DNA from: Chloroflexota bacterium
Lineage (GTDB): Bacteria > Chloroflexota > Anaerolineae > Anaerolineales > Villigracilaceae
Assembly: GCA_016234495.1 (NCBI GenBank)
Contig: JACRBI010000052.1
Span: 13,789-77,788, forward strand
Length of the DNA: 64,000 nucleotides
Reading direction: 5' to 3'
Part shown: positions 4,774-64,000 of the stretch, piece by piece
Layout of the letters: the number at the start of each line of letters is the position of its first letter
How positions within the stretch are numbered: the stretch's first letter is position 1
Made by a program: the position numbers and the translations under genes
Notes under the pieces: generated by a model
The model's database searches: none
What the model was told of the DNA's origin: nothing
The model's input: the letters and a program-made list of their open reading frames with translations, nothing else

Positions 4774-4792
4774 CCGCAAAATTAAATATTCG

Positions 4793-4911: not shown

Positions 4912-4925
4912 GATGGTGTAGACGT

Positions 4926-4961: not shown

Positions 4962-5032
4962 CCCCCTAAAGGGGGTAATAACAATATCTCTTCTGAAGGG
5001 CGGATAAACATTATTCAAGAGGAGAAAATAAA

Positions 5033-45472: not shown

Positions 45473-45565
45473 GAAACAGAACCTGACGGGATGAACCTGT
45501 CAGGTTTTGTTTCTCAAACCATTCGAGAAATAATCTTAGGGCTAATAAAAAAAGAAGGACATCTT

Positions 45566-47638: not shown

Positions 47639-47656
47639 TAAGCCCCGGAGTCGTTC

Positions 47657-48148
47657 ATGAAAAAGATTTTTTACACTCTCACTTTTATACTTATTCTTGG
47701 CGTGATGTTCACCGGTGCGGCGTTCGCGCAGGGTGAACTCCCCACTGATGACGAAGTGAACGCAGTCGCACATCAACTGTATTGCCCCGTCTGCCAGAAC
47801 ACGCCGCTCGATGTCTGCCCGACGGACGCCTGCCGTGACTGGCGCGAACAGATCCGCGGGATGCTGGCGGAAGGAAAAACCGAAGATGAGATCCTGCAAT
47901 ATTTTGTCGATCAATTCGGTGACCGGGTTCTATCGGCACCGCCGGTCAGCACGAAATTCAACTGGATCATTTACATCATCCCGCCGCTGATCATCCTCGC
48001 AGGCGCGATCATCCTCTTCCGCTCGCTCAAAGAGTGGACAACGCCCAAAGCAACAGAAGCAGCTGCGGTCGAAGATGGAAGCGGCTCGTCATCCCCATCA
48101 GATGATTATGTGGCGCGTCTTGAGGAAGAGTTGAAGAAACAGAAATAA
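47657..48148 (+). CDS. ccmH: CcmH/CycL thiol oxidoreductase
   Basis: LYCPVCQN, I..ML.EG.TEDEI..YFV..FG..VL. Confidence 0.88.
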   Translation: MKKIFYTLTFILILGVMFTGAAFAQGELPTDDEVNAVAHQLYCPVCQNTPLDVCPTDACRDWREQIRGMLAEGKTEDEILQYFVDQFGDRVLSAPPVSTKFNWIIYIIPPLIILAGAIILFRSLKEWTTPKATEAAAVEDGSGSSSPSDDYVARLEEELKKQK

Positions 48149-48216
48149 ACCCCTCTCCCCTTGCCCCTCTCCCAAAATGGGAGGGGGGTTGGGGTGAGGG
48201 ATTTTTGGAGAATGTT

Positions 48217-48786
48217 ATGACTGAAGAAACAACAAATACAAAACGCGGCTTATCCATTTGGGTGCAAGTTGCCGTCTGGGTCTTTGTGGTGGGCTTGCTC
48301 GGGCTGGTGGCATTTGGCTTGAGACGCGCGCAAAACCCGATGGCAGTCGTTGGAGACCGCGTCCCGGACTTCGACCTTGTTTTTTATGAAGGCTATGAAT
48401 ACAACGGTCAAAAAGAAATGAAACTTTCCGACCTGCAAGGCAAGATTGTGCTGATCAACATCTGGGCTTCGTGGTGCAAACCCTGCGAACAGGAAGCGCC
48501 CGACCTTGAGGAAGCCTGGCAGTTTTACAAAGACAGCGATGACGTGGTCTTCATTGGCGTTGATTACGTGGATACGCCGGCCGGCGCAAATGAATACCTG
48601 ACAAAGTTCAACATCAGTTTTCCAAATGCGCCTGACTTGAAATCGAACATTTCGAGCATCTTAAACCGCCAGATGGGCGTGCCTGAAACTTATATCATTG
48701 ACCGCGAAGGTGTCCTGCAAAATATAAAGATCGGACCCTTTACGTCTGTGGATGAGATCATCTCTGTCATTGAAAGTGTTCGGTAG
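48217..48786 (+). CDS. ccmG: TlpA/CcmG-like membrane-anchored thioredoxin
   Basis: INIWASWCKPCEQE, GVPETY. Confidence 0.82.
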   Translation: MTEETTNTKRGLSIWVQVAVWVFVVGLLGLVAFGLRRAQNPMAVVGDRVPDFDLVFYEGYEYNGQKEMKLSDLQGKIVLINIWASWCKPCEQEAPDLEEAWQFYKDSDDVVFIGVDYVDTPAGANEYLTKFNISFPNAPDLKSNISSILNRQMGVPETYIIDREGVLQNIKIGPFTSVDEIISVIESVR

Positions 48787-48798
48787 GGAAAATCAAAC

Positions 48799-49305
48799 AT
48801 GGAATTAGGTTCAATCTTTCTTATTCTCGCTGTTGCCGTACTCATCGGCATTTATTTATATGTGCCATTCACTGCCCGCGCCCGCCGTGGACGCGCGAGC
48901 GAAACGCTGGAAGTCTCCGCCTTGAAAGCGGAACGCGACCGGGTGATCAACTCGCTGCAAGAATTGGATTTTGACCACAACCTCGGCAAGATCCCCGCCG
49001 AGGATTATCCTGCCCAGCGCGCGCTGCTCCTGCAAAAAGGCGCGGACATCCTGCGCAAACTGGATGAGCTGACTTCGGGAGCGGCTTCTGACAGCAACGT
49101 GGAATCACGGATCGAACAGGCTGCTGCCGCAGTCCGCGCCGATTCATCCGCCACGGTTAAGCCGCTCGACGATGACGATCTCGAATCAATGATCGCCGCG
49201 CGCCGCAAAGAGCACAAGAGCAAGTCCGCTGGTTTTTGCCCGAAATGCGGCAAGCCGGTGCTCGTCACTGATAAATTCTGCCCGTCCTGTGGGAAAGCTT
49301 TGTAA
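48799..49305 (+). CDS. CcmI-like N-terminal region with C-terminal zinc ribbon
   Basis: TM; L.ELDFD..LGKI..EDY; CPKCG..DKFCPSCG. Confidence 0.65.
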   Translation: MELGSIFLILAVAVLIGIYLYVPFTARARRGRASETLEVSALKAERDRVINSLQELDFDHNLGKIPAEDYPAQRALLLQKGADILRKLDELTSGAASDSNVESRIEQAAAAVRADSSATVKPLDDDDLESMIAARRKEHKSKSAGFCPKCGKPVLVTDKFCPSCGKAL

Positions 49306-49391
49306 TTAGCCAGTTAGCGATTGGCGATTAGCAGTTAGCCAATCGCTAAACGCCAACAGCCAAACGCTAAAAATAATCTTTGAGGAATTTA

Positions 49392-51317
49392 ATGAAACTA
49401 CGCCATATCGTTTTAATTACCGCAATCGCAATTTTTCTCGCCGCGTGCAACTTCACCCTCGCCGAGGATGTCACTCCCCCGCCGAATTATGTGCCGCCCG
49501 CCCCTGCGCCAACCATGGGACCATTGTTCCCGCCAAACACACCGGACGTTGAAAACGGCGCGGCGATCTATGTTGAAAAATGCGAACCCTGCCACGGCGT
49601 CACTGGCTTGGGCGACGGTCCGCAAGGTTTACAGCTGCCGGTTTCGGTTGCCGCAATCGGCTTGCCCGCCACCGCGCAAAAGGCATTGCCCTCCGACTGG
49701 TACATTCAGGTAACGCAAGGCAACCTCGAGCGCTTCATGCCGCCGTTCGCAAGTTTGAACGATCAGGAACGTTGGGACGTGGTTGCCTATGCATTAACCC
49801 TGCACACCAGCCCCGATCAAATCGCGCAAGGCAAAACACTCATTGAAGATAGCTGCGCCGATTGCGCGAAAACTTTCAGCAGCCTCGAGATGATGTCGGC
49901 GCTTTCCGAGAATGACCTGATCCAGTTGATGAAAAACGGTCAGGGTGATATCCCCGCTTTTGGAAAATCCTTTACCGATGAAGAAGCCGCCGCCGCTGCC
50001 GCTTATCTGCGGACTTTGACCTTCGCGGCTCCGCCCGCGCCGGTAGCTGTTGCCGCCACCGAGACACCCGTCAGCACTGAGGCGGCGACAACCCCGTCCG
50101 CTGAGACCACGCCAGTTGATGGCACGCAGGCCGCAGTCACGCCAGAAGCGGGTACTGAAGCCGCTGTCACACCTGTTGACGGCACACCTGCCGCAGCGAC
50201 GGAAACCCCAGTCGAAGCGACATTGGCAGAAGGCATGGGCAGTGTCAGCGGTTCGCTGGATAACCAGACGGGCAAGCCGCTGCCAGCCGATATGAAAGTG
50301 ACTCTGCGCGCCATGGAACACGGCAGCGACCCAAGCACCGGGCCGAAAGAGCTTGAGACGTTTGAAGGGCCGGTCAATGCCGATGGGACTTTTGTTTTCA
50401 ATAATGTTCCAGTGCCTGAAAACCGCATTTACATTGCAGATGTGGATGTGAACGGCTCAATTTATCAATCTGGTTTTACGATTGTGAAGGCCGGCGAAAC
50501 GGATCTGGTCATTCCGCCGATCACCATCTTCGAAGGCACATCCGATTATTCGACCTTGCAGATCACATCCCTGCAAATCTACTTTGACTTTGCTGTTGAA
50601 GGTTCGGCGCAGATGTTCTCGGTGTATTCGATTGCGAACATCACCGACAAGACCGTGACAGTGCAGATGACAGGGGCGCAGGATATTCCATTCATTGCCT
50701 TCGCAGAAGGTGCGGAGCCGCTTGGTTTTCAAGCCACGCAGGATACGGCGGCGTTCGTTCAAACAGCAGACGGCTTTGCCATGCCGCCCAGCACATCCAC
50801 CTACGGCCTGATCGCGTTCTCCTCACTCGTCAAAACTGAAAAAATGGAAATCTCGCAAGCCGCGCTGCTGCCCATTGACAATGTCAGCCTGTTCCTGCCC
50901 GAAGGCATGGAAGCAACAGGTGATGGATTAACAGATGAAGGAGTTCAACAGCAGAATGGCGTGAACTATCACGTGTACTCAGCAGGCAGCCTGGAAAAGG
51001 ATGAAAGCGTCAAGTTCACTGTGACCGGCAAGCCGATCTCGGTGGAAGTGAATCCGGATGTTTTGCAGAACAAGACGCTCCTGATCGGCGTCGGCGCGCT
51101 TGGGCTGGTCCTCGTTCTGGCAGGTGTTTGGTTGTTCCTGCGCGAACCAAAGAAAGTGGACGAAACCGACGACGAAGAGAATGAATTTGATGATCCCGAG
51201 TCGCTCATGGATGCCATCATCGCGCTGGACGATCTGCACCGCAGCGGCAAACTGTCTGATGAAGCCTATCAAAAGCGGCGTGACGAGTTAAAGAGCGCGT
51301 TGAAGAGAAGGTCATAA
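49392..51317 (+). CDS. Lipoprotein c-type cytochrome with Ala/Thr/Pro linker, large exported domain and C-terminal TM
   Basis: Lipobox FLAAC; one CEPCH heme motif; MPPF distal Met. Confidence 0.75.
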   Translation: MKLRHIVLITAIAIFLAACNFTLAEDVTPPPNYVPPAPAPTMGPLFPPNTPDVENGAAIYVEKCEPCHGVTGLGDGPQGLQLPVSVAAIGLPATAQKALPSDWYIQVTQGNLERFMPPFASLNDQERWDVVAYALTLHTSPDQIAQGKTLIEDSCADCAKTFSSLEMMSALSENDLIQLMKNGQGDIPAFGKSFTDEEAAAAAAYLRTLTFAAPPAPVAVAATETPVSTEAATTPSAETTPVDGTQAAVTPEAGTEAAVTPVDGTPAAATETPVEATLAEGMGSVSGSLDNQTGKPLPADMKVTLRAMEHGSDPSTGPKELETFEGPVNADGTFVFNNVPVPENRIYIADVDVNGSIYQSGFTIVKAGETDLVIPPITIFEGTSDYSTLQITSLQIYFDFAVEGSAQMFSVYSIANITDKTVTVQMTGAQDIPFIAFAEGAEPLGFQATQDTAAFVQTADGFAMPPSTSTYGLIAFSSLVKTEKMEISQAALLPIDNVSLFLPEGMEATGDGLTDEGVQQQNGVNYHVYSAGSLEKDESVKFTVTGKPISVEVNPDVLQNKTLLIGVGALGLVLVLAGVWLFLREPKKVDETDDEENEFDDPESLMDAIIALDDLHRSGKLSDEAYQKRRDELKSALKRRS

Positions 51318-51375
51318 TCATGTCATTGCCTCGCCGCGAAGATCACGCTCCTCGCAACGACGTATGGAATCATTA

Positions 51376-52074
51376 ATGATCGAAGTCAAAAAACTCGTCA
51401 AACGCTTTGGGCTAAAAACAATCCTGCGCGGACTGAATTTTTCAGTTGAGCCCGGTGAGTTTGTGGCATTGCTCGGCCCCAATGGCGCCGGCAAAACGAC
51501 ATTCCTGCGCATTCTTGCCACGCTCTCGCGCCCGTCGCTGGGCGATGTGAAGATTGCAGGCCACCACCTCCCCGCTGACGCCGCGCAAGTCCGCGCCAAA
51601 TTGGGCGTTGTCTCCCACATGCCTTTGCTATATCCAGACCTGACAGCCGAAGAAAACCTGCGCTTCTATGCCCGCATGTACGGCATAGGAAATATGGAAG
51701 CCCGCATCAGCGAAGTATTGGAAATGGTCGGGCTGGAAAATCGCCGCAAGGATTTAGTCCGCACCTTTTCACGCGGAATGCAGCAGCGACTCGCCATTGG
51801 GCGCGCGGTCATCCACGACCCGGAAGTGATGCTGTTCGATGAGCCTTATACCGGTCTGGATCAGGATGCCTCCGAAATGCTGGATGAGGTGCTGCGCTCC
51901 GTTGCCGCTGAAGGCCGCACCGTGGTCATGACCTCGCACGATCTGGCCCGCGCCGAAGACCTGGCCACCCGCTTTGACATTCTCTCGCGCGGCGTGATCA
52001 CAGCCTCTGCAACGCAAAAAGAATTAAAACAGACAAACCTGCTTGCGTTTTACAAACAGGCACTGGCGGATTGA
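51376..52074 (+). CDS. ccmA: Heme export ABC ATPase
   Basis: GPNGAGKTT, FSRGMQQRL, LFDEP. Confidence 0.9.
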   Translation: MIEVKKLVKRFGLKTILRGLNFSVEPGEFVALLGPNGAGKTTFLRILATLSRPSLGDVKIAGHHLPADAAQVRAKLGVVSHMPLLYPDLTAEENLRFYARMYGIGNMEARISEVLEMVGLENRRKDLVRTFSRGMQQRLAIGRAVIHDPEVMLFDEPYTGLDQDASEMLDEVLRSVAAEGRTVVMTSHDLARAEDLATRFDILSRGVITASATQKELKQTNLLAFYKQALAD

Positions 52075-52820
52075 TGATGGATAAAAAAACAGCGACCATA
52101 GACAGTAGACCGCAGACGATGAACCGCCCATCGTCCATCGTCCATCGTCCATCTTTTGTAAAAGCTACTTTGGCCATTGTGCAAAAAGACCTCTCGGCTG
52201 AGTTTCGTTCATTTGAATTGATCTCCGCCATGCTTGTCTTCTCGCTTTTGGTCATCATTATCTTCAACTTCGCGTTGGAATTGGATATCAAAGTGCGCGA
52301 GTCGGTTACTTCCGGCGTATTGTGGACGACCTTCGCATTTGCGGGCACGCTCGGGCTTAACCGATCCATGTCCGTGGAAAAAGACCGCGGCTGCATGGAC
52401 GGCCTGTTACTCGCACCGGTAGACCGCTCCGTCATTTATTTTGGCAAGGCTATCAGCAATCTTATCTTCATGCTCATTGTGGAAGTAATTGTCCTGCCCG
52501 TTTACAGCATGTTGTATAACGTAAACCTGTTTCGGCTTGACCTGCTCGGGGTGATCCTGCTCGGGTCCATCGGGTATGCGGCCGTTGGCACGCTGCTCTC
52601 GACCATGTCGGCGCAGACGCGCACGCGCGAAGTATTGCTGCCCATTTTGTTATTCCCAGTGGCAATGCCCGTTCTGTTGGCATCGGTCAAAGCCTGCAAC
52701 GGCTTGCTGACCGGCGCAGAATTTTCCGAAGTGCTCACGCCGCTAAATCTTCTCATCGTTTACGATGTCATCTTTATCGCCATCGCATTCATGGTGTTTG
52801 ACTTTGTAGTGGAGGAGTGA
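52074..52820 (+). CDS. ccmB: Heme export permease
   Basis: KDL.AEFRS, EKDRGCMDGLLLAP, LLPILLFP; TGATG coupling to ccmA. Confidence 0.9.
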   Translation: MMDKKTATIDSRPQTMNRPSSIVHRPSFVKATLAIVQKDLSAEFRSFELISAMLVFSLLVIIIFNFALELDIKVRESVTSGVLWTTFAFAGTLGLNRSMSVEKDRGCMDGLLLAPVDRSVIYFGKAISNLIFMLIVEVIVLPVYSMLYNVNLFRLDLLGVILLGSIGYAAVGTLLSTMSAQTRTREVLLPILLFPVAMPVLLASVKACNGLLTGAEFSEVLTPLNLLIVYDVIFIAIAFMVFDFVVEE

Positions 52821-52892
52821 TCTAGGAGAGAGTAAGAAGTAATACGCAGTTGAAATTGCTAACCGCTAATCGCTATATTTACAGGAGTTACC

Positions 52893-53588
52893 ATGCAAAA
52901 TAAACCCGTTCTATTAACCATTCTCGATGCAGCCTCCATTATTGTCCTCGGCATCGCCACGTATCTTGCGCTCGTGTTCGCCCCCACCGAAGCAGTGATG
53001 GGACAAGTTCAGCGTGTTTTCTATTTCCACATCGGCACAGCCTGGGTGGGATTGCTCGGATTCGTGATTGCGGCAGTGGCCGGCGTCGCATATCTCATTA
53101 CAAAAGATTCGCGCTGGGATCGCTTCGAAGTCGCTGCGGTGGAAGTAAGCACTGTCTTCTTCTTCATTACCATCGTGCTTGGCTCGATCTGGGCGCGCCC
53201 CGCCTGGAACACCTGGTGGACGTGGGATCCGCGCCTGACGACCGCCGCCATTACAGAGCTGATCTACATCGCCTACTTCATGCTCCGCAAGGGAATTGAA
53301 GACCCCGAAAAGCGCGCGCGCTTCGGCGCTGTCTACACATTATTGGGCGGTATCAGCGCGCCGATCACCTTCATGGTCATCCGTCTCTTCCGCACCATCC
53401 ATCCGATCGTCATCGGGTCGGCAAATGCCAATCAGGAAAAAATGAGCATGACCGGCGATATGAAGATCGCCTTCTTCTTTGGGCTGTTCGCCTTCACAGT
53501 CATCTTCATTGATTTGATCTGGCACCGCATCCGCCTCGGCAGTCTCGAAGAAAAAGTTGAACAGTTGAAACTCAAAGTTTCAATGTAA
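52893..53588 (+). CDS. ccmC: Heme delivery protein CcmC
   Basis: FYFH, WARPAWNTWWTWDPRLT, RTIHP. Confidence 0.93.
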   Translation: MQNKPVLLTILDAASIIVLGIATYLALVFAPTEAVMGQVQRVFYFHIGTAWVGLLGFVIAAVAGVAYLITKDSRWDRFEVAAVEVSTVFFFITIVLGSIWARPAWNTWWTWDPRLTTAAITELIYIAYFMLRKGIEDPEKRARFGAVYTLLGGISAPITFMVIRLFRTIHPIVIGSANANQEKMSMTGDMKIAFFFGLFAFTVIFIDLIWHRIRLGSLEEKVEQLKLKVSM

Positions 53589-53607
53589 TGATTATTAGGA
53601 GATAAAT

Positions 53608-53796
53608 ATGTTACTTGAAACCACCCCCGACACTTCCGGCTACATGATCGCAGGCTATGTTTTTTCCTTTGTTGTGATGGGCATTTACGTTTTTAGCATG
53701 TATCTTCGGAATGCCAATCTCAAGCGGGATGCCGAAACACTGGAATCTTTACAAGCGGAGGAAGCTAAAAAAGCATCCAGCCCTAAAAAGAAATAA
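53608..53796 (+). CDS. ccmD: CcmD-like small membrane protein
   Basis: 62 aa; YMIAGY TM followed by a charged tail; directly after ccmC. Confidence 0.7.
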   Translation: MLLETTPDTSGYMIAGYVFSFVVMGIYVFSMYLRNANLKRDAETLESLQAEEAKKASSPKKK

Positions 53797-54007
53797 GAAC
53801 TGGACTTTCGCTTGGCATGGTTTGAACGCTTCGCGTTCAGACCTCGAAGCAAAATCGGGAGATTTTCCACTCCAAACAAAAGTTTCATAAGAAAATCCTG
53901 CTCCTTCTGTTTTGGGAGCAGGAAATATGACAAATTCAATCCATTTAAAGTTGAGAATTGCTGTTATCAGAAAGTCCGCTTATAATGTAGGCGGACTTTT
54001 TGATCGT

Positions 54008-55615
54008 ATGACTCGCCGCTGGCTGCTCGGCCTCTTATCCATTCTGATTGCCTTAACCGGCACAGCTTTTACGCGTGCCCTTGCCGCCAACCCTCCGCCT
54101 GGCCCAGACCGTTTTACAGTCATCACCGTGGACTACACCGCCTTCGAATGGTATTTTGCCACCTGGAAGGGATCGAATGTTGTCTGTTCTGTGAAGACAG
54201 ATCACGAAGGTCCCCCCAACCCGGAGGAAGTATATCGGGATTGCGAACTGGCGGTCTACAATAAGTGGGTCTCCCAGCCGCCGTGCATTTACAGAGATTC
54301 AAGTTTGTGCGATGGGTACTACACTTTCCCCGTAAATAGTTGGGCTGCCCAAAAAGAGATTCCGATGCAGCTCCCACCCCCGGCTGCATGGATTTCGCTG
54401 GAAGACTGCCAGCCGGTGCTGAGCACGTCCACCAATATATGCGAAACCACACCGACGCTCGTGATCGCCGGTTACGAACCTGTTCAGAATGAGCGAATCA
54501 TCCGAATCGAAGGGACATATAATGGTCAGCCTTTCGACTGCGACCAGACCGATGTATGCAAATTCCACATCCCTGAAACGGATGTAAAAGGCGTAAGGGT
54601 GGAGTTCTGGGCTTATTCATCTTATGGCGATAGCAGCCTGATTTACAGTGCGCAAGTCCGTGTGCAAAAAGCAAGCGAGAATGATCCCGACCAGGCCTAT
54701 TGGTATGTGGATGTTCTATCTTCGCAATGGGTTGGACAGGCTGTAGCCATGTGCTCCGACTCATGGAATGTGTTCCCGCCGGTTGGCGGACCTCCCGCCT
54801 GGCTGACCACGCCCAAACAAAGCGAAGAACTCAGCAGCGACATTCCCTACACCTACCTCGCGAAAAATTTAATCCTGCAAGGCGCGGTGGATGCAAGTTC
54901 CTGCACCGATGGCGGAATTTCTCCGGACGGCATGGTGAATCAATGCGGGCTGGAAATGGCGCGCGAAGCAGTGACCAACTGGCAAAATCAATTTGATGAA
55001 TTGATCTTAACCACCGCCCGCGAAACAAGCGTACCCGCGCGATTACTTAAAAATCTATTCGCAAGAGAAAGCCAGTTTTGGCCGGGCAGTGGTCAGGCTC
55101 CGGGTGATACGGGTCTGGGTCAACTGACAGAGAACGGCGCAGATACCACCCTGTTCTGGAATCCATCTTTTTATAATCAGTTTTGTGTGCTGGCATTGCC
55201 GGGCGAAACTTGCGGCAAAGGCTACATGCACCTGACCCCGGAAGAAAGACAGGCGCTGCGCCTCGCGCTGGTGACAAGCGTTAACGCAACCTGCAAAGAT
55301 TGTCCGCTTGGGATCGACCTGGCGCGCGCAGATTTTTCAGTCGGCGTTTTTGCGCACAGCATGATCGGAAGCTGCAAGCAGGCGGGACAGGTCATCACAA
55401 ATTACACCGGCAAATCGCCAGGCGATGTAGCCTCCTATGAAGACCTGTGGAAGTTCTCCCTCGTCAATTACAACGCCGGCGGAGGGTGCCTGGCAGAGGT
55501 CATCACCCGCTCGCTTGGCGAAGGCAACACGATTCTCACGTGGGACAACACTTCGCCATTTATCAGCGGCGCATGTGCCGGCGCGCTGGACTATGTGAAC
55601 GACATCAGCAAATGA
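54008..55615 (+). CDS. Exported Cys-rich protein with C-terminal lytic transglycosylase (SLT)-like domain
   Basis: Signal peptide; ARESQF (catalytic E-S), GLGQL, NYNAG. Confidence 0.65.
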   Translation: MTRRWLLGLLSILIALTGTAFTRALAANPPPGPDRFTVITVDYTAFEWYFATWKGSNVVCSVKTDHEGPPNPEEVYRDCELAVYNKWVSQPPCIYRDSSLCDGYYTFPVNSWAAQKEIPMQLPPPAAWISLEDCQPVLSTSTNICETTPTLVIAGYEPVQNERIIRIEGTYNGQPFDCDQTDVCKFHIPETDVKGVRVEFWAYSSYGDSSLIYSAQVRVQKASENDPDQAYWYVDVLSSQWVGQAVAMCSDSWNVFPPVGGPPAWLTTPKQSEELSSDIPYTYLAKNLILQGAVDASSCTDGGISPDGMVNQCGLEMAREAVTNWQNQFDELILTTARETSVPARLLKNLFARESQFWPGSGQAPGDTGLGQLTENGADTTLFWNPSFYNQFCVLALPGETCGKGYMHLTPEERQALRLALVTSVNATCKDCPLGIDLARADFSVGVFAHSMIGSCKQAGQVITNYTGKSPGDVASYEDLWKFSLVNYNAGGGCLAEVITRSLGEGNTILTWDNTSPFISGACAGALDYVNDISK

Positions 55616-55669: not shown

Positions 55670-56803
55670 TTAATGCACGTGGGTGCAGGGATCTTCTTCC
55701 AGCGGCAGGTTCTTCATCGCAAATCCAAAAGCCATAATGCCAGCCGAGAAGAGACCAATCGTCACGGCCAGTTCCAGAACATGCGGAACGTACGGTTCGC
55801 CCGCCATGCTGACCAAGCCGATATTCAGCCGGTACAGAATCAGCCCAAGCAGGGTCAGCAGGCCGGCGCGGAAGATCCACGGGGAACTCTTGCGGAATTT
55901 CGGGACGAGCAGGATTGCAATCGGCAGGATGATCCCAATCAGGTTTTCCAGAATAAACATGTTGCCCTGGAATGTGCCGCTGAAGATCAGCCCCAATTCA
56001 CCGGCATAGGCGAGGTCGCCCACTTTGATGAGCAGGAGCAATCCCAGCGTAATCAACATGCCGCGGGCGAGTCCCTGAAAAATTTCGTTGCGGACCTGTC
56101 CGCCAAAGACCTGATGTGAAATTGCGCATTCGAAGATCACCATACCAAAACCGACGGCAATGGCCGAGACAAGGAAGATCAACGGAAGCAGGGATGTGTA
56201 CCAAAGCGGATGCATCTTGAAGGGCACAATCAGAAACAGCGACCCCAAAGAGGATTGGTGCATGGTCGAGAGGGTCACGCCGAGAATCACCACCGGGATG
56301 GAAATTTTCTTTACGAACTGCAGCAGGCTTGTCCAGCCGAGCTTCTCGAGCAAGGGCGGGCTGAATTCCAGAAACAAAACCGCAGTGTAGGTCATCACGC
56401 ACATGCCAACCTCAAACAGCGGGGAATGGAGGTTCCAGTAAACGAGCATGTGCCAGATGCGCTGCGGTTGTCCTAAATCCACCAGCAAGGCGAGGATCAC
56501 CATCAGGTAGCCGAGGAAACCGGTCAGCAGGGCCGGGCGCAGTATGGGGCGATACTTCTCGATGTGGAAAATGTGAACGGTCGCCGCGAGAACGAAAGCG
56601 CCAGCCGAGATCGGCACGCCCACGAGCAGATCAAAACTGATCCAGATTCCCCACGGGCGCGAGTCGCTCAAATTGGACACATGGCTAAATCCATCCACCC
56701 AGCGGAACATGGCCGCGAAGGCGCCCAGCGCGGCAAGAAACACCAGGATGAGCGTGCCAATGGAAACCTGTTTCTTGACAACGGGAAGGGTGATGCTCGT
56801 CAT
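55670..56803 (-). CDS. NrfD/HybB/PsrC-family quinol-interacting membrane subunit
   Basis: PWGIWI.FD, VDLGQP.R.W, SPLFEV..C, LSTMHQSSLG. Confidence 0.9.
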   Translation of the reverse strand: MTSITLPVVKKQVSIGTLILVFLAALGAFAAMFRWVDGFSHVSNLSDSRPWGIWISFDLLVGVPISAGAFVLAATVHIFHIEKYRPILRPALLTGFLGYLMVILALLVDLGQPQRIWHMLVYWNLHSPLFEVGMCVMTYTAVLFLEFSPPLLEKLGWTSLLQFVKKISIPVVILGVTLSTMHQSSLGSLFLIVPFKMHPLWYTSLLPLIFLVSAIAVGFGMVIFECAISHQVFGGQVRNEIFQGLARGMLITLGLLLLIKVGDLAYAGELGLIFSGTFQGNMFILENLIGIILPIAILLVPKFRKSSPWIFRAGLLTLLGLILYRLNIGLVSMAGEPYVPHVLELAVTIGLFSAGIMAFGFAMKNLPLEEDPCTHVH

Positions 56804-57672
56804 GACTTCACCTCCTCTTCCGGAGTGGATGTCTTATTTTTGGTGCGCTGATAAACGGCAGACATCGCCCCGCCCACCCCGAAGAATATGGCCGGCACAA
56901 TGTTCAACGCCCATTGAGTGCGATCCGGCAGCGGCTGGGGATCGAGACCCGGCAGGCCAATCGCTTCAAACGGGACACCAGAAAGAATCAGCACCGAAGT
57001 CCCGCCGCCCTCGAATTCGCCATAGACCCGGTCTTCGAAATATTTGCCGGGGTTGACGGAAATTCGCATCTTGGCAATTTCCAGCAGATCGCCGCGCCTG
57101 CCAAAAAGCAAAGCCTGTTTGGGGCAAATATCGGCGCAGGCCGGGCCAGCCTCGCGGTGGTAACACATCTCACATTTGCGAATGAAAGGATACGCCAGCG
57201 ACCAATCATAGCGCGGGACGCCGAAGGCGCAGGCTTGCATACAATAGCGGCAGCCGATGCACTTGTACGCGTCGTAAACCACCGGGCCGTTTTCTATTTT
57301 GTGCAGCGCGCCAACCGGGCACGAGGCCGCGCAGGCCGGGTCTACGCAGTGCATACATTGATATTTGCGGAAAGACTTTTGCGCGCCATCCTCAGATTGG
57401 TACAATTTGATCAACGTGAAGGTGTTCCCGCTCAGGTCGTCCACATTTTCTTCGGGGAGCTTGTTGTAGGCTTTGCAGGCGCGTTCACATTCGCGGCAGC
57501 CGCTGCATTGCGTTGCGTCGTAAAGCAGCGCCCAATGTTCTTCGAGCGGAAGTTCTTCATTGGATGAAGCGCCTGCTGAAACACAAGCATTGGCTGTCAA
57601 AGCCAGGCTGCCGAGACCGGCCCCGGCAATCTTCAAGAATTCGCGGCGGGAGAGATTGGATTTATTTTGCAT
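56800..57672 (-). CDS. Tat-exported 4x[4Fe-4S] subunit (HybA/NrfC-like) with C-terminal TM
   Basis: SRREFLK; CSGCRECERAC, CMHCVDPACAASC, CIGCRYCMQAC, CEMC..CADIC. Confidence 0.9.
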   Translation of the reverse strand: MQNKSNLSRREFLKIAGAGLGSLALTANACVSAGASSNEELPLEEHWALLYDATQCSGCRECERACKAYNKLPEENVDDLSGNTFTLIKLYQSEDGAQKSFRKYQCMHCVDPACAASCPVGALHKIENGPVVYDAYKCIGCRYCMQACAFGVPRYDWSLAYPFIRKCEMCYHREAGPACADICPKQALLFGRRGDLLEIAKMRISVNPGKYFEDRVYGEFEGGGTSVLILSGVPFEAIGLPGLDPQPLPDRTQWALNIVPAIFFGVGGAMSAVYQRTKNKTSTPEEEVKS

Positions 57673-57676
57673 GACG

Positions 57677-58897
57677 TTATTCCTTCCCCTGCGGGTCATT
57701 CTGCTTTGTGGATTTGGAACGGGTCAACCTTGCGCGGAGGCTGGAGAGTACACCCCAAAGTTTTTCTCCCTTTGAGCTGCCTTCCATCTTGCGCGCAGTG
57801 GTGAATTCGAAGACGCCGATGATCGCAGCGACACCCACCAGCCAGTAAGCCCAACTCCAACTACGTTTGGGAGCGGCGACCAGTTTGTTCAAGTCAGTTT
57901 CAGTCAACGCTGGGAAATCTTCGTTCTCCCACGCAATGGTATCCAGTTCTTCGGCAGTGTAGCCGAGAGCCACAAAATCGGCGCGCAGTTTCTCGTCCAT
58001 GATGTGACAGTCGGTGCATTGCGGCGCAGTTTCGAGGCGCGAAACGCGATGGACGACCGGCCAGTTCATCTGGTCTTTGACAAAACTACCCAGCGCTTCA
58101 TGGCTGGTGCCCGTCCGTTCACCCACACTGGCCGAAACCTCGGAGGTGCAGTCGAAGCCCTTGAAGAAGGTGCTGGTATCTTCGTGCTGATAATTGAACA
58201 GGAATGTGTGCGGCACATCCAGGGTGTGGCAGGAGACGCAGGGGATGTTTTCCTGGAGGTGCATTTTGCCGAGAGACTCTTCCATCTCCCCCAAGTCTTC
58301 CGCGCTGTGACAACTTTTGCACATGTCATCCGGGTTATCGAACAACACCTTCTGGCTGTGCGGGTCGTGGCAGTTCACACAGCGGACTTCGTTGGGCGTG
58401 GTATGCCCGGATAAACGAACTTCACCCAGAGTGGTCGGGTGACATGTCCCGCAGTATTCCTCATCTGAGCGCACTGGAATTTCCGCGGGGGGATGCTCCG
58501 CGCTGCCCTGCCCGTGACAGGCCTCGCACGAAACGCCTTCGGCAATGTATTGTTCAGTGTTCGGGTCGTACGTTGCCTTGTGGCACAGGAGGCACTCGTC
58601 AGCATATTCCATGTTAGCCCAGCCTTCCTGAAAAACAGAGTCGTCGAAGGAGTGGGCATGCGGACTTTCCAGCCAGGCATCATGTTTATCCGGGTGGCAT
58701 TCGACGCAGGCCTTTTCGGGTGGAGCGGCTGTCGGCGGCGGAGTGGACTCTGCTACGGGTTGGGAAATGCCGGTTGTCTGCGCGGCAGGCCGGAGGTCGG
58801 TTTGAGCCGATGCAGTGCCGACGAGCAGGATCATGCTTAACAGTCCGATCAGCAATGCGGTGAGAAAAATCTTATTACGATTGAGTCGCATGTTCAT
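57677..58897 (-). CDS. Octaheme c-type cytochrome with signal peptide and C-terminal TM anchor
   Basis: 8 CxxCH: CVECH, CLLCH, CEACH, CGTCH, CVNCH, CKSCH, CVSCH, CTDCH. Confidence 0.9.
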   Translation of the reverse strand: MNMRLNRNKIFLTALLIGLLSMILLVGTASAQTDLRPAAQTTGISQPVAESTPPPTAAPPEKACVECHPDKHDAWLESPHAHSFDDSVFQEGWANMEYADECLLCHKATYDPNTEQYIAEGVSCEACHGQGSAEHPPAEIPVRSDEEYCGTCHPTTLGEVRLSGHTTPNEVRCVNCHDPHSQKVLFDNPDDMCKSCHSAEDLGEMEESLGKMHLQENIPCVSCHTLDVPHTFLFNYQHEDTSTFFKGFDCTSEVSASVGERTGTSHEALGSFVKDQMNWPVVHRVSRLETAPQCTDCHIMDEKLRADFVALGYTAEELDTIAWENEDFPALTETDLNKLVAAPKRSWSWAYWLVGVAAIIGVFEFTTARKMEGSSKGEKLWGVLSSLRARLTRSKSTKQNDPQGKE

Positions 58898-58932: not shown

Positions 58933-59850
58933 TTATGAACTGACTGTCAGCGGGTTGGCCATCTCTGAAGTCAGGAACGTCCAAAAGGCGGCTTGTGATT
59001 TTGACTCGGGGCGGCGGCTGTTGTGGCCGATGTAAATATTGCGGCAGATGTTCAAATCGCGCACACGGATGCGGGCAACTTTGCCGGGGCAGATTCGGTC
59101 AACGACCATTTGCGAAACAAATCCAACTCCGAGCCCTTCCTGGACAGAAAGAGCAATCGCTTCAGAATTTCCGAGAGTGATGAGGATACGCAGGTCTGAG
59201 ATCGAAACCTTGTGCTGTTTGAGCGCCTCGGTGACGGCGTGGAATGTGCCGGAAGAGGATTCGCGCATGATGAAGTCTGCATCGAGCAATTCTTCTGCTT
59301 CTATCTCCTCGCGCTGCGCCCATGGGTGACCCAACGGGGTGATGAGGACGATCGGGTCACAGATGAACGAAACAGCTTCGATATCCGGGTAGTTGGCGTA
59401 GTCCATGCTGAAGAGCGCAAAGTGGACTTCCCCATCCACCAGATTTTGCAGGGCGTCGGTCTGGGGCGTGACCTGACAGGTGACCCGCACCTGGGGATGC
59501 CTGTGATGAAAGCTGGTCAACAAGTGCGGGAGGATGTATTTTCCGGGCGTGGTGCTGCACCCAACGATCAGGTGTCCGAAAATCCCTCCTTTTAGTGAAG
59601 CCATTGTTTCGTCAATCCGCATGGACAGCATGACAGCCTCTCTTGCCAGTGGCAGCAAAGCCATGCCGGCATCGGTCAGTTCCAGGTTTCGGCCATTTCG
59701 GAAAAATAACTGCGTGTCGAAATGGCGTTCCAACCCCTGAATGTGCTGGCTGACGCTGGGCTGGGTCATATGCAGCTGCTGGGCGGCCTGAGTGAAATTT
59801 AGCGCCTCTGCCGCGACTACAAAAACGTTGAGTTGATGGACATCTAACAT
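58933..59850 (-). CDS. LysR-family transcriptional regulator (CysL-like)
   Basis: NFTQAA..LHMTQPSVSQHI..LE, LF.R.GR..ELT.AG, RE.SSGT. Confidence 0.92.
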   Translation of the reverse strand: MLDVHQLNVFVVAAEALNFTQAAQQLHMTQPSVSQHIQGLERHFDTQLFFRNGRNLELTDAGMALLPLAREAVMLSMRIDETMASLKGGIFGHLIVGCSTTPGKYILPHLLTSFHHRHPQVRVTCQVTPQTDALQNLVDGEVHFALFSMDYANYPDIEAVSFICDPIVLITPLGHPWAQREEIEAEELLDADFIMRESSSGTFHAVTEALKQHKVSISDLRILITLGNSEAIALSVQEGLGVGFVSQMVVDRICPGKVARIRVRDLNICRNIYIGHNSRRPESKSQAAFWTFLTSEMANPLTVSS

Positions 59851-59919
59851 GGTTATACCTTTCTTGTGAATATTAACACAAAACACATAAGTCTACAAAG
59901 AGTTTAATGGTGTTTCATA

Positions 59920-59970: not shown

Positions 59971-60036
59971 CAATATCACTTGATTGTAGTGTATATTGCT
60001 TATATAATTTGTGAAAAGTTGTACAAGAAGAGGATT

Positions 60037-61491
60037 ATGAAAACCATGAGGCTATTTCGACAGATAAGTTTATTCATCACCACCGCCCTGTTATTTTCAA
60101 GCTGTGCCCCGGCCAGCCCTGTGGATGCCTCCGCCAATCAAACCACTGCCCAACTGGCGGACGTAAAACTTTCCATTCCGGCCGTACTCCAGCCCGAAAT
60201 GGGAACTGGCGAAGGCGCCGGACCGAATGAATGCCTGAACTGCCACTCGGATAAGGATCGCCTGATCGAAACCGCCAAGCCGGTGGTGGAAGCAGCCGAA
60301 AGCGAGTCAAAAGGCGTTGGCTGAGGGGGCGAGGTGGCTCCGTTGGAGCCATGGGAGAAAGTGCTCGTTGACCTCAAGAAGTTCCCCGAGACGGTGCATG
60401 GTCACATTGAATGCACGGCTTGTCATCAGGGAAGCCAATCGTCAGATAAGGAAACAGCCCATAAGGATATGACCGCCCGTCCGAGCGAGGGAGACCCCAA
60501 CGCCTGCGGCGAATGTCACCCGGATGTGGCCGGAGTTTTCTCCAGCAGCCTGCATTCCGATTTGCAGGGATATTGGACAGCCCTGGATGCGCGTTCCGCG
60601 CCGGAGAATCACCCGCCGCTTGAGCAGGCTTTCAATAATCATTGCTCACGCTGTCACACCTCCTGCGGCGACTGCCATGTGTCGCAGCCTGCCAGCGTGG
60701 GTGGCGGCTTTTTCGAAGGACACGTGTTCGCCCGCACCCCGCCAATGACGCGCTCCTGCACGGCCTGCCACGGCAGCCGCGTGGGCAATGAATTCCTCGG
60801 CAAAAATGAGGGCTTCCCCGGCGACGTTCACTTCCGCGACGGGCGCATGAACTGCGTGGATTGCCACAGCGGACATGAACTTCACGGTCAGCCGGCTGAA
60901 TGCACGCAATGTCATACCAGCCCGGAAGCCATGACGATGAAGCCGGCCGATCATCGCTACGATGGCGTGCAGTCCCCCACTTGCGAGTCATGCCACCCCA
61001 ACACCACGGTCGGCAAGGACAACATTGAAATGCACACCGTCCACGGCGCGGATTTATCCTGTCAGATCTGCCATTCGATCACGTACACCAGCTGCGACGG
61101 ATGCCATGTGGCGATCAGCGAAAAGACAGGCAAGCCGTATTTCGAAACCGAGGCAACTTACTTCACCTTCCTGATCGGAAAGAATCCGTTGATCAGTTAC
61201 ACCCGTCCCTACAAGTTTGTGCCGCTGCGGCATGTGCCGGTCGCCGAGGATAGTTTCTCTTTCTACGGCGAGGACCTGCTCCCGAATTTCAACGCAGCCT
61301 CCACCTGGGTCTATGCCACCCCGCACAACATCCAAAGGAACACCCCGCAGGCCGCCTCGTGCAATGCTTGTCATGGCAATGCAAGCTTGTTCCTGACCGC
61401 AGACAAAGTTAATCCCGAGGAGTTGGAAGCCAATCAAAATGTGATCGTTGAGAGAATTCCTGCTCCCGTCGAAGAATCAACACCCAAATAA
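60037..61491 (+). CDS. Probable selenocysteine-containing dodecaheme cytochrome c lipoprotein (484 aa, in-frame TGA at 60322-60324 = residue 96)
   Basis: Track ORFs 59980..60324 and 60334..61491 share a frame and are separated only by TGA (..SKGVG-U-GGEVAPLEPWEK..); lipobox LLFSSC upstream; 1 + 11 CxxCH motifs. Confidence 0.82.
60334..60352 (+). promoter_or_regulatory. Candidate bacterial SECIS hairpin
   Basis: GTGGCTCC-GTT-GGAGCCAT stem-loop starting about 10 nt after the TGA, G-first loop. Confidence 0.7.
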
Positions 61492-61506
61492 CAAGGAGAT
61501 CGAGAA

Positions 61507-63222
61507 ATGACCAAGAAACTGTATTTGCCCATCGTTCTATTGCTGGCACTCAGCATTTTACTGGGAGCCTGCGGAACGCCCGCTGTCGCCACTGAACCGC
61601 CAGTTGTGCAGACCGAACCACCAGTCATAGCCACTGAACCGCCTGTTATCGCCCCCGATGCCCAGGCCCTGTTCACCGACCTCATCGCCAGTCTCCCCGC
61701 AGACAAGGGCTATGGTTCGGTCAAGTCTGCCGCGTTGAATGAAGAACTCGCAGACAAGGCGCCCTTCCTGCTCGACGTGCGCGAAACCGCCGAAGTTGAG
61801 AAGGATGGCTACATCGAAGGCTCGGTCAACATCCCGGTGCGCGAAGTGCTCAACAACCTCGACAAACTGCCCGGCCTCGACGAACCCATCGTAGTCACTT
61901 GCGCCTCCGGTCACCGCGGCGGCATGGTGATGGCATCCCTTAAACTGCTGGGCTACACAAACGTCCGCAACCTGAACGGCGGTTTGAATGCGTGGAAGAA
62001 AGCCGAACTGCCAGTTGTGACCGGCTCCATGCCCGCAGCCCCGGCCGTCGTCGGCACAGCCATCATCGCCGACCAGGCACTATTCGACATGCTCAATGAT
62101 TTCCTCTCGACCCTGCCCGAGGGATTCAACGCTGTAAAATCTGACAAACTCTCTGAAGAACTTGCCAGCGGCACCCTGCCCGCGATCATTGACGTGCGCA
62201 GCAAAGCCGAATGGGACAAGGATGGATACATCGAAGGCTCTGTAAACATTCCGTTCAGCGACCTGTTTGCAAACCTCGACCAGATTCCCGCGGATAAAGA
62301 CGCGCGCATCATCGTGCTGTGCGCATCCGGCCACCGCGGCGGAATCACCATGATGGCCCTGCGCCTGATGGGCTACACAAACGTCATCAACCTGAATGGC
62401 GGCTTGAACGGCTGGAAGTCGGCTGGCCTGCCCGTAAAAGGCTTGGTCGCCGAGATGGCAGCCTTCATCACCAGCCTGCCCGCCGATGCCGGTTTCTACA
62501 GCATCAAATCAGACAAGCTCAACGAACTGCTGGTCGAAACCCCGCCCTTCATTGTGGACGTGCGCGAAGCCTCCGAACTCGAAGCCAATGGCTACATCGC
62601 CGGCGCGATCAACATCCCGATCCGCGAACTGCTGAAGAACCTCGACAAACTGCCGGGCAAGGATCAGAAAATCATCATCACCTGCGCATCCGGTCATCGC
62701 GGCTCACTCGGCATGATGTCGCTGCGCCTGCTGGGATATACGGACGTCGTCAACCTCAACGGCGGAATGAACGGCTGGATCAAGGCTGAATTCCCGGTCG
62801 AGAAGACCGCTCCCGCCGCCCCGACGGCTGGCACCGCTCCCGAAGTGGATGCCGACAAACTGGCTGCTCTCGACGCTTACCTGAGCGCCCTGCCTGAAGG
62901 TTTTGGCGCCGTAAAATCCCCCGATTTCAACACCGAGCTCGTTGCCGGGACAATTCCCTTCATCCTCGACGTTCGCACCCAGGAAGAATGGGACGCTGAC
63001 GGCCACATCGACGGCGCTGTGCTGGTTTCGATCAACGACCTGGCCGCCAACCTGGCCAAACTTCCCGCCGACAAGGCTGCGCCCATCGTTGTCACCTGCA
63101 AGTCCGGGCACCGCGGCGCCATGGCGCAAATGTACCTGCAATTCCTCGGCTACACCAGCATCCGCAACTTAAACGGCGGCATGAACGGCTGGATCGCCGC
63201 CGAACTGCCTGTCGTCAAGTAA
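61507..63222 (+). CDS. Lipoprotein with four tandem rhodanese (sulfurtransferase) domains
   Basis: Lipobox LLGAC; four LDVR/IDVR..E..GYI.G.. blocks with loops CASGHR x3 and CKSGHR; NLNGG.N.W. Confidence 0.9.
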   Translation: MTKKLYLPIVLLLALSILLGACGTPAVATEPPVVQTEPPVIATEPPVIAPDAQALFTDLIASLPADKGYGSVKSAALNEELADKAPFLLDVRETAEVEKDGYIEGSVNIPVREVLNNLDKLPGLDEPIVVTCASGHRGGMVMASLKLLGYTNVRNLNGGLNAWKKAELPVVTGSMPAAPAVVGTAIIADQALFDMLNDFLSTLPEGFNAVKSDKLSEELASGTLPAIIDVRSKAEWDKDGYIEGSVNIPFSDLFANLDQIPADKDARIIVLCASGHRGGITMMALRLMGYTNVINLNGGLNGWKSAGLPVKGLVAEMAAFITSLPADAGFYSIKSDKLNELLVETPPFIVDVREASELEANGYIAGAINIPIRELLKNLDKLPGKDQKIIITCASGHRGSLGMMSLRLLGYTDVVNLNGGMNGWIKAEFPVEKTAPAAPTAGTAPEVDADKLAALDAYLSALPEGFGAVKSPDFNTELVAGTIPFILDVRTQEEWDADGHIDGAVLVSINDLAANLAKLPADKAAPIVVTCKSGHRGAMAQMYLQFLGYTSIRNLNGGMNGWIAAELPVVK

Positions 63223-63239: not shown

Positions 63240-63273
63240 AACTGCCCGCGAGTTTCCTCGCGGGCAGTTTTTT
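63240..63273 (+). terminator. Intrinsic terminator ending the multiheme-rhodanese operon
   Basis: AACTGCCCGCGAG-TTTC-CTCGCGGGCAGTT + T run. Confidence 0.85.
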
Positions 63274-63442: not shown

Positions 63443-64000
63443 ATGCTTTCACTCATCGAAAAGGTACTCTTCGTCATTGCGACACTCGCCTCACTCTACT
63501 TCACGTATCGCGGTGTTGCGCTCATCATGCAGCGCATCGGCAACGGTCAGGGAAAAATAGATGGGTCGCTGGCAATCAAACGGGTCGGAGAACTCATCGT
63601 CAAAGTGGGATTGTTCCAGCCCGTTTTTCGTTTCAGATTATGGCCGAGTATTTTACACGGGCTGATCGGATGGGGATTCCTTTCTTTTCTTTTGATCAAT
63701 CTCGCGGATCTGATCTACGCCTATACAGGGTTCAAACTTCTGGAGCATACTGGCCTGTTTGGTGACTTGTACCGCCTGCTCGCGGATTTTGCGAATGTCA
63801 TCATCATCGTCGGCATTGTGGCGATGGCAATCCGCCGCTTCATTCTTCGACCTGCGACTCTGTCCACGCGCGAGACGACTCTGCTCAACCCGAAAGCGCG
63901 GATCGGCATCACACGCGACTCAGCCATCGTTGCGACGTTCATCTTCGTCCATAACTCGATGCGCTTATTGGGAGAATCGTTTGGGATAGCGCTGGCCGGT
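63443..64000 (+). CDS. Partial membrane protein resembling the N-terminal TM region of FadF/HdrE-D-like Fe-S oxidoreductases
   Basis: AGGAGG RBS; manual translation MLSLIEKVLF..LFQPVFRFRLWPSILHGLIGWGF..LLADFAN..RRFI.RP; open to the window end. Confidence 0.6.
   Translation, partial: MLSLIEKVLFVIATLASLYFTYRGVALIMQRIGNGQGKIDGSLAIKRVGELIVKVGLFQPVFRFRLWPSILHGLIGWGFLSFLLINLADLIYAYTGFKLLEHTGLFGDLYRLLADFANVIIIVGIVAMAIRRFILRPATLSTRETTLLNPKARIGITRDSAIVATFIFVHNSMRLLGESFGIALAG

Follow-up and report, generated by a model that had tools for sequence, protein, structure and literature searches.

The window analyzed here, a stretch of 64,000 nucleotides from a Chloroflexota bacterium of the Anaerolineales (GenBank assembly GCA_016234495.1, contig JACRBI010000052.1, positions 13,789 to 77,788 of the forward strand), encodes a lipoprotein with four rhodanese domains directly downstream of a lipoprotein cytochrome c with twelve heme-binding motifs, the gene of which contains an in-frame TGA codon presumed to be read as selenocysteine (Sec). 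The rhodanese lipoprotein is very probably a dedicated partner of this Sec cytochrome: The two genes adjoin each other irrespective of which of them is used to select the loci for comparison. That the lipoprotein serves the cytochrome as a multivalent persulfide carrier, with sulfane sulfur as the cargo and with a reductive direction of the reaction, is considered somewhat probable. The elements of the pair are as follows:

59980..60008, + strand: promoter-like site TTGATT-17-TATAAT (10/12 consensus match, nothing beyond the consensus)
60037..61491, + strand: lipoprotein cytochrome c of 484 amino acids with 12 CxxCH motifs, lipobox LLFSS-C23, in-frame TGA read through
60322..60324, + strand: in-frame TGA, read as selenocysteine, ESKGVG-U-GGEVAPLEPWEK, same position in 62/62 loci
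60334..60352, + strand: hairpin resembling a selenocysteine insertion sequence (SECIS), 8-bp stem, GUU loop, 9 nt past the UGA, centroid fold -12.9 kcal/mol
61493..61498, + strand: AAGGAG ribosome-binding site within the 15 nt that separate the cytochrome stop from the rhodanese ATG
61507..63222, + strand: rhodanese lipoprotein, one open reading frame (ORF) of 571 amino acids
61507..61572, + strand: lipoprotein signal peptide, to lipobox Cys22 (codon 61570-61572; C22 invariant in alignment A1)
61573..61656, + strand: Pro/Glu/Thr/Val-rich tether with three TEPPV (residues 23-50), the least conserved segment (0.56)
61657..62019, + strand: rhodanese domain D1, type A, catalytic C132 in CASGHRG (codon 61900-61902)
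62071..62439, + strand: rhodanese domain D2, type B, catalytic C272 in CASGHRG (codon 62320-62322)
62440..62802, + strand: rhodanese domain D3, type A, catalytic C393 in CASGHRG (codon 62683-62685)
62851..63219, + strand: rhodanese domain D4, type B, catalytic C531 in CKSGHRG (codon 63097-63099)
63240..63269, + strand: hairpin resembling an intrinsic terminator, 18 nt past the rhodanese stop (stem of 13 bp with 9 GC pairs, followed by TTTTAT)

Conserved pairing of the rhodanese and cytochrome genes

Judged by the signals listed above, the cytochrome and rhodanese genes are a two-gene unit that extends from promoter to terminator. A scan of species-representative genomes yielded 78 loci, with 77 full-length rhodanese orthologues. 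The preliminary description of this DNA, which had been made from the letters without database searches, connected the rhodanese lipoprotein with the Sec cytochrome, and the two do indeed co-occur: Among the 77 loci selected by their rhodanese, 66 have the cytochrome gene directly upstream of it, the 11 exceptions being three truncated contigs, seven loci of a sister clade that are linked to polysulfide reductase (Psr) genes or encode two domains, and one divergent locus. The reverse check gave the same picture, as the rhodanese gene follows directly 3' in 20 of 21 metagenome loci that were selected by their cytochrome and include at least 500 nt of downstream sequence. The only testable locus without a downstream rhodanese (L102, 5746-7101) is also the only one with a cytochrome homologue that carries Leu at the Sec position (one uninterrupted ORF, HFG-L-GGDIDPIEPWKK, no rhodanese gene 3'); loss of Sec and loss of the rhodanese thus coincide in this one case. 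The two-way synteny of the pair spans at least 60 species-level genomes and persists down to a rhodanese identity of 36%. In a census of neighbor families at 80 loci, only the rhodanese (74 loci), the cytochrome (65) and a LysR regulator (57) were near-universal.

The presumed selenocysteine-containing cytochrome

The TGA codon of the cytochrome gene stands in the context ESKGVG-U-GG(D/E)VAPLEPWEK and is present in 62/62 loci, with a Cys codon in 0/62. The third codon positions within the hairpin that follows are invariant in all 62 species, while flanking third positions vary freely; such frozen positions show selection at the RNA level, as expected of a bacterial SECIS. The folding z-score of the hairpin is weak (-1.4), so that the SECIS argument rests on this synonymous-site invariance; in the Rfam scan of the window at gathering threshold, no SECIS family was matched. 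The sole match of that scan was an S-adenosylmethionine (SAM) riboswitch (RF00162, 76.9 bits; window 4793-4911), which is positioned upstream of an ORF of 429 amino acids (5033-6322). Past the TGA, the cytochrome lacks a signal peptide; since a c-type cytochrome needs to be exported for heme attachment, read-through of the codon is required.

The cytochrome exhibits Pfam matches to Cytochrome_C7 and c3. Three families of Sec cytochromes are given in a review of 2026, i.e. ExtKL (NF040886), GSU2204 (NF041027) and OTR (TIGR04315) (PMC13188914). Membership of the cytochrome in the MccSep/ExtKL, OTR or GSU2204 family was considered and rejected, as the comparison with PDB and NCBIfam gave no matches to them; the protein is therefore placed outside these families and appears to represent an uncatalogued selenoprotein family. 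The fragment past the TGA showed a single, very weak and local NCBIfam match (ExtM, E = 7e-6). All Cys residues of the cytochrome are accounted for by heme binding and the lipobox, leaving no free Cys. In the public database entries seen, solely the post-TGA fragment of 385 amino acids is present, labeled 'hypothetical protein' or, in entries of the Joint Genome Institute (JGI), 'thiosulfate/3-mercaptopyruvate sulfurtransferase'.

Architecture of the rhodanese lipoprotein

The rhodanese gene is a single ORF with exactly the extent given in the preliminary description, and the features which the latter had read from it were all recovered. The N-terminus fits a type II signal peptide (K3 and K4, a hydrophobic run, then LLGA-C22), and its sequence MTKKLYLPIVLLLALSILLGA-C22 agrees with the PROSITE lipobox rule PS51257 as judged from the sequence; lipidation is thus predicted, and the lipobox is present in nearly all orthologues. 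The three TEPPV motifs of the spacer lie at residues 29, 36 and 43 and are encoded by a 21-nt tandem repeat (61588-61640). The Pfam family Rhodanese (PF00581) matches in four stretches (E = 7.9e-84; 277 bits versus a cut-off of 22.2), each of which contains a Cys loop: CASGHR at C132, C272 and C393, CKSGHR at C531. The arrangement as two similar pairs, [D1-link-D2][D3-link-D4], was confirmed by shared indels and by linkers of 16-17 amino acids. All four loops are of the six-residue sulfurtransferase type (C-X4-R), and all four domains are predicted to be catalytically competent; a reading of the fold as arsenate reductase or phosphatase (Cdc25/Acr2) is excluded by this loop length (C-X4-R, not C-X5-R). 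The NCBIfam models of PspE and GlpE match single domains of the protein, and the only annotation found in databases is 'rhodanese-related sulfurtransferase'.

In the AlphaFold2 model, four alpha/beta rhodanese domains are predicted (mean predicted local distance difference test (pLDDT) score 88.4, predicted template modeling (pTM) score 0.68), and residues 19-46 have pLDDT values below 50; this predicted disorder fits a flexible tether. The top Foldseek hits of the model were all rhodaneses. The best PDB relatives were 1YT8 (E = 1.3e-20 by sequence, 1.2e-21 by Foldseek) and 6MXV (E = 6.3e-23); the global Foldseek TM-score to 1YT8 is just 0.19, which indicates that the inter-domain arrangement is either not shared or not resolved. 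Domain D4 matches Sud of Wolinella (1QXN) with E = 1.8e-6.

Conservation of the active sites and of the A-B unit

The family comprises more than 120 clusters at 90% identity, all of about 574 amino acids and 63-96% identical; the named clusters belong to Anaerolineales/Chloroflexota. Cys is retained at all four loop positions in 77/77 full-length orthologues, and the four-Cys pattern is accordingly not due to chance (the few loops missed by the regular expression were G-to-A loop variants or C-terminal frameshifts just past the Cys). Conservation is about equal across the four domains (0.67-0.73), the tether and linkers vary most, and none of the domains is decaying; the second residue of the D4 loop is A, K, Q or G among orthologues. 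Even cytochrome-partner rhodaneses of 36-38% identity still possess the lipobox and four loops, in the order CGSGWR, CGSGHR, CGSGWR and CGSGHR.

Within the orthologue group, D1 and D3 share an identity of 0.56 and D2 and D4 of 0.51, with A-B comparisons at 0.46-0.49; identity is highest between domains of the same position in different orthologues (0.60-0.70), so that the A-B-A-B layout must be older than the divergence of the sampled species. An exhaustive, profile-free search retrieved relatives with two, four and six domains, with Cys in every copy. Two of the six-domain relatives are P0121 and P0132, in which identity is 83-92% among A copies and 63-93% among B copies; A and B of P0132 are only about 36% identical. 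The A-B pair is, as read from these repeats, an amplifiable module in which the Cys is kept in each copy, and this is the pattern expected from selection for multivalency. When single domains were clustered by average linkage, the groups followed lineage and not A/B type: The A/B distinction is visible only within orthologue groups and within single proteins, and is hence not ancient across the superfamily, the amplifications being lineage-specific or homogenized.

The preliminary description had also pointed to strongly C-ending codons in the rhodanese gene. Its fraction of C-ending codons (C3 = 0.51) is in fact the highest of the 53 ORFs of the window (z = 2.4), and its NNC/(NNC+NNT) ratio at two-fold NNY codons is 0.81 compared with 0.56 +/- 0.08 in its neighbors (z = 3.0, rank 1/18). 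The second-highest C3 (0.47) belongs to an ORF resembling methylenetetrahydrofolate reductase / homocysteine methyltransferase (window 28389-29879); high C3 is thus not confined to the rhodanese gene. The bias is strong in the organism of the window and one close relative, with a weak trend across 62 loci (median z = 0.68), and is not a family-wide trait. High expression, as suggested in the preliminary description, would be one possible explanation of such codon usage.

A sister clade linked to a PsrA homologue

Rhodanese lipoproteins of a sister clade are 47-50% identical to the window protein, contain two or four domains, all of them with Cys, and have no cytochrome beside them. At five loci (L065 and L071-L074), the rhodanese gene is located directly downstream of genes for a molybdopterin oxidoreductase, a 4Fe-4S subunit and a cytochrome b; at L076, a more distant PsrA/PhsA-like gene lies upstream. 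The best NCBIfam model of the catalytic subunit is thiosulfate reductase PhsA, and its comparison with PsrA of Thermus thermophilus (2VPW/2VPZ) gave E = 3e-296. The PsrA homologue beside the sister rhodaneses ties the family to polysulfide/thiosulfate respiration independently of the cytochrome.

In four of these loci (L065, L071, L073 and L074), the gene of the PsrA homologue contains a conserved in-frame TGA (GAGG-U-[AG][SA]xPGEEAGLPPGPTGK) with a hairpin 3', exactly at the position where Thermus PsrA has a Cys (AAGG-C-SGPSGG). The protein may therefore be a Sec-containing PsrA, a type that is absent from the list in the selenoproteome review of 2026. At L074, the gene spans 3060-5432, with the TGA at 4338-4340 (GAGG-U-...PGEEAGLPPGPTGK) and the hairpin following it. 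Compensatory changes were looked for in the hairpin of the PsrA gene; the stem core is identical and length alone differs, and covariation is not claimed. If both TGA codons are read as Sec, the two enzyme partners of the rhodanese family would each carry Sec in a Gly-rich loop. At L014 (1013-5133), genes for a PsrA/PhsA-like protein (its loop region, PGG-C-LS, contains a Cys), NrfC and NrfD are situated about 3.5 kb upstream of the pair, and some genomes accordingly contain two kinds of putative sulfur reductase next to each other.

Further genes at the locus

The following neighbors of the pair were identified in the window:

45491-47638: CcmF
47657-48148: CcmH/NrfF-like gene
48205-48786: ResA/CcmG-like thioredoxin
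49380-51317: protein of 645 amino acids with cbb3-type cytochrome c domains
51364-53796: CcmA, CcmB, CcmC, CcmD
55670..58897, - strand: accessory electron-supply module, i.e. 8-heme cytochrome, HmcB/HybA/NrfC-like and HmcC/HybB/NrfD-like proteins (Pfam, NCBIfam; 58897 is the estimated real ATG of the 8-heme cytochrome)
58933..59886, - strand: divergent LysR-family regulator (Pfam HTH_1, LysR_substrate), adjacent in 55-57 loci
63443..64000, + strand: start of an HdrD/DsrK-like membrane Fe-S protein, continuing past the window end

The accessory module consists of the 8-heme cytochrome with a C-terminal transmembrane helix, a 4Fe-4S protein with a twin-arginine translocation (Tat) signal and an HmcC/HybB/NrfD-like membrane subunit, and adjoins the pair in 8-14 of the 77 loci. 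In L110 (182-12444), it is encoded on the same strand as the pair. The array of this locus comprises a multiheme cytochrome of 678 amino acids, an FeS protein, NrfD, the Sec cytochrome (called as two split genes of 117 + 360 amino acids), a six-domain rhodanese (820 amino acids), a further multiheme cytochrome (807 amino acids) and a cytochrome b; by its predicted products it looks like a complete respiratory module around the pair. No molybdopterin oxidoreductase was found among the scanned ORFs adjoining the pair in the window, and no porin among the recurrent neighbors of the 80-locus census.

The HdrD/DsrK-like start shares 55% identity (E = 2e-67) with a protein of another locus (L015:11832-13949; Pfam CCG x2, Fer4), and full-length relatives display a transmembrane region, a 4Fe-4S dicluster and two CCG domains. 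Enough downstream sequence was available for 51 loci, and in 11 of them such a gene is present within 3 kb 3' of the pair (or of its LysR gene); its product may be a fourth component with thiol/disulfide chemistry.

The region 45491-53796 of the window is a complete System I cytochrome c maturation region, and of the 77 loci, about 16-20 have ccm genes upstream of the pair. A role of the pair in cytochrome c maturation was rejected, as the pair is constant while ccm genes are restricted to that number of loci. Between the ccm genes and the cytochrome-rhodanese region, a Cys-rich secreted or membrane protein of 567 amino acids is encoded (window 53912-55615), which is kept at this place in 16-17 loci and had no family match except for a sub-threshold SLT hit.

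Proposed function and alternative explanations

As far as sequence evidence goes, the interpretation of the preliminary description, a multivalent sulfane-sulfur carrier for the Sec cytochrome, is supported, and its sulfane-sulfur part is backed by the PsrA-linked sister rhodaneses and by the published ExtH-MccSep cluster of Geobacter (see below). In the proposed mechanism, the sulfurtransferase would be lipid-anchored at the outer face of the cytoplasmic membrane by a flexible tether of about 30 residues that carries two A-B copies. Each rhodanese Cys would take up sulfane sulfur from polysulfide, thiosulfate or species derived from elemental sulfur (S0) and hold it as Cys-persulfide; the tethered array would then present its persulfides to the exposed selenolate of the cytochrome, with Sec in a glycine-rich loop. 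Attack of the selenolate would lead to a Se-S intermediate, which electrons from the heme chain would reduce to sulfide; in some lineages, these electrons may originate from menaquinol via the octaheme/HmcB-like/HmcC-like module. The domain architecture, the conservation of the four Cys, the lipobox and tether, the operon structure, the two-way co-occurrence and the PsrA link of the sister proteins can be seen in the sequences; we infer from them which substrate is used (sulfur or selenium), that persulfide is passed to Sec, that the reaction is reductive and that the two proteins touch.

Several observations weigh against the proposed carrier function. The full-length cytochrome (with U read as C) matched no NCBIfam model at E <= 1e-5 and has no meaningful relative in the PDB; according to its predicted Cys inventory, it is devoid of a free Cys for a His/Cys heme ligand, unlike MccSep of Geobacter. 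The direction of electron flow is not readable from a sequence, the quinol-dehydrogenase module is adjacent in a minority of loci only, and no sox, dsr or sqr genes turned up among the recurrent neighbors. tRNA-Sec and Sec machinery were not seen in the window and the fetched fragments, a result that is uninformative with seven tRNAs in total. In the search of sequencing runs for the locus, no RNA run matched; the DNA runs show a groundwater origin.

Among the other explanations, the handling of selenium or tellurium survives best and is nonetheless regarded as unlikely: The rhodanese would bind selenium from selenite as a Cys-S-Se(-) perselenide, and the Sec cytochrome would be a selenite/tellurite reductase for detoxification, respiration or Se acquisition. 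Rhodanese can carry selenium, as Ogasawara et al. reportedly observed in 2001. MccSep also reduces selenite (PMC13510729), the ext cluster has been linked to selenite/tellurite reduction and to the localization of ExtH (PMC5877670), and ExtM, the very weak sole match of the cytochrome fragment, is named a 'selenite/tellurite reduction operon' cytochrome in NCBIfam. The coupling of the sister rhodaneses to a PsrA-type polysulfide reductase, however, speaks for sulfur; Se oxyanions occur in traces in groundwater, yet the pair is found almost universally in the clade and is strongly conserved there, and the presence of four to six binding sites points to a substrate handled in bulk.

Slightly less probable is a function of the rhodanese as resolving thiol in trans or as redox guardian, in which its Cys residues, rather than delivering substrate, would form and resolve a selenenyl-sulfide with the exposed Sec, a part that Cys239 plays within MccSep itself, or keep the extracytoplasmic selenol reduced. 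Such a function would match the lack of a spare Cys in the cytochrome, as the mechanism of MccSep needs a Cys (Cys239) in addition to Sec (PMC13510729). It would likewise be in line with the coinciding losses of Sec and rhodanese in L102 and with the Sec or Cys in a Gly-rich loop of both partner enzymes, but L102 is a single case, and neither four to six copies nor a full rhodanese loop, in which His and Arg form a conserved cradle for anionic sulfur, would be needed for this task. Moreover, PsrA of the Thermus type works with Cys, and to our knowledge no such requirement exists for it.

More doubtful still is an oxidative direction, according to which the Sec cytochrome would oxidize sulfide or thiosulfate in the manner of TsdA/SoxAX and pass the electrons via its hemes to the quinone pool, with the rhodanese accepting or shuttling the sulfane product. 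Modules of the HmcBC and NrfCD type run either way, and a gene for a cbb3-type-like cytochrome c is located nearby in the window, as is a full ccm system. The chemistry of MccSep, too, has been discussed as the reverse of that of TsdA/SoxAX (PMC13510729). Both precedents for the pairing (Psr/Sud and MccSep/ExtH) are nevertheless reductive, and sox and sqr genes are missing from the recurrent neighbors listed above. Anaerolineales, furthermore, are mostly anaerobic heterotrophs.

A generic extracytoplasmic thiosulfate:cyanide sulfurtransferase (a PspE-like housekeeping or detoxification enzyme with meaningless synteny) would agree with the single-domain matches to PspE and GlpE and the annotation as 'rhodanese-related sulfurtransferase' and is highly improbable in view of the conserved two-way synteny (at least 60 species-level genomes, to 36% rhodanese identity), the common transcription unit with the cytochrome and the joint loss of Sec and rhodanese in L102.

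The persulfide-carrier function might be part of a more general, so far unrecognized persulfide-to-selenol relay, in which one rhodanese family docks on two respiratory enzymes unrelated to each other, the 12-heme Sec cytochrome and the Sec-containing PsrA-type reductase; this generalization is tentative. With the same reserve, ExtH/MccSep of Geobacter could be regarded as a third instance, the rhodanese Cys-persulfide then being the true substrate of the selenol.

Implications for the metabolism of Anaerolineales

In groundwater, sediments, anammox reactors and activated sludge, Anaerolineales rank with the most abundant bacteria, and the range of what they can respire is poorly defined. If the carrier function holds true, a near-universal operon would give them the capability for selenium-dependent reduction of sulfur, polysulfide or selenium species; if the relay does as well, selenium-dependent respiration of S0 or polysulfide in Anaerolineales would have been overlooked by current annotation, because the cytochrome is cut at the TGA in every database entry seen. 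In consequence of these truncated gene calls and of the mislabeling of the fragment, metabolic reconstructions miss the cytochrome. The principle of a Sec-containing multiheme polysulfide reductase, first demonstrated in 2026 for MccSep, would extend to a second, unrelated cytochrome family in a different phylum, and the rhodanese lipoprotein would be a candidate answer to the open question of the MccSep paper as to which sulfur-transfer components feed the enzyme.

Comparison with known systems

One lineage, Geobacter, is already known to pair a rhodanese lipoprotein with a Sec multiheme cytochrome. In Geobacter sulfurreducens, the extHIJKL cluster encodes the 49-kDa rhodanese-family lipoprotein ExtH (GSU2940), together with ExtI (a porin), ExtJ and the pentaheme cytochrome ExtKL, which contains Sec (PMC6148476, PMC5877670). 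ExtKL was characterized in 2026 under the name MccSep; it reduces polysulfide (and selenite), is indispensable for S0 respiration and has its catalytic Sec325 beside a His/Cys-ligated heme (PMC13510729). ExtH and the window protein are alike in being rhodanese lipoproteins encoded together with a Sec multiheme cytochrome. The cytochromes themselves differ: MccSep has five hemes, Sec in a C-terminal Ig-like domain (DG-U-PT) and the His/Cys heme, whereas the window cytochrome possesses 12 CxxCH motifs, has its GVG-U-GG close to the N-terminus, lacks a free Cys and does not match NF040886. The Geobacter cluster, that of a diderm, includes the porin ExtI and ExtJ, whereas the Chloroflexota system is a tight two-gene operon with both proteins predicted to be lipid-anchored. 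ExtH (49 kDa), which was compared by its description only, stands against a window protein of 571 amino acids with four active-type domains. In a paper on Microbacterium, the name ExtH is used for a cytochrome (PMC12227724). Full-text searches of the literature revealed no description of a rhodanese-Sec cytochrome pair in Anaerolineae or Chloroflexi.

Sud is an extracytoplasmic rhodanese with an active Cys that passes polysulfide sulfur to a respiratory reductase. Members of the sister clade are encoded behind a PsrA homologue and might be coupled to it in the manner of Sud; the window protein has the Sec cytochrome beside it. Sud of Wolinella succinogenes (1QXN) is a soluble, single-domain homodimer that serves the molybdenum enzyme Psr, in contrast to the window protein, which is a lipid-anchored single chain with four sites and follows the Sec cytochrome. 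PhsE of Desulfitobacterium hafniense is said (Prat et al., 2012) to be a tandem rhodanese with two active sites. Each A-B unit of the window protein resembles this type in carrying a Cys loop in both domains; a phs/psr molybdoenzyme operon of the PhsE type is found in the sister clade only, whereas the window protein consists of two A-B units and follows the cytochrome.

The thiosulfate sulfurtransferase of Pseudomonas aeruginosa (1YT8) likewise combines four rhodanese domains in one chain; unlike the window protein, it has a Cys loop in alternate domains only, according to the alignment. Neither 1YT8 nor the two-domain protein of Francisella (6MXV) contains a lipobox, and we know of no cytochrome partner for either of them. 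Finally, the classical tandem rhodaneses (bovine Rhod, 1RHD; Azotobacter RhdA, 1E0C; SseA, 1URH) share the fold and the six-residue Cys loop with the window protein: They combine an inactive N-terminal with an active C-terminal domain, whereas in the window protein all four domains are of the active type.

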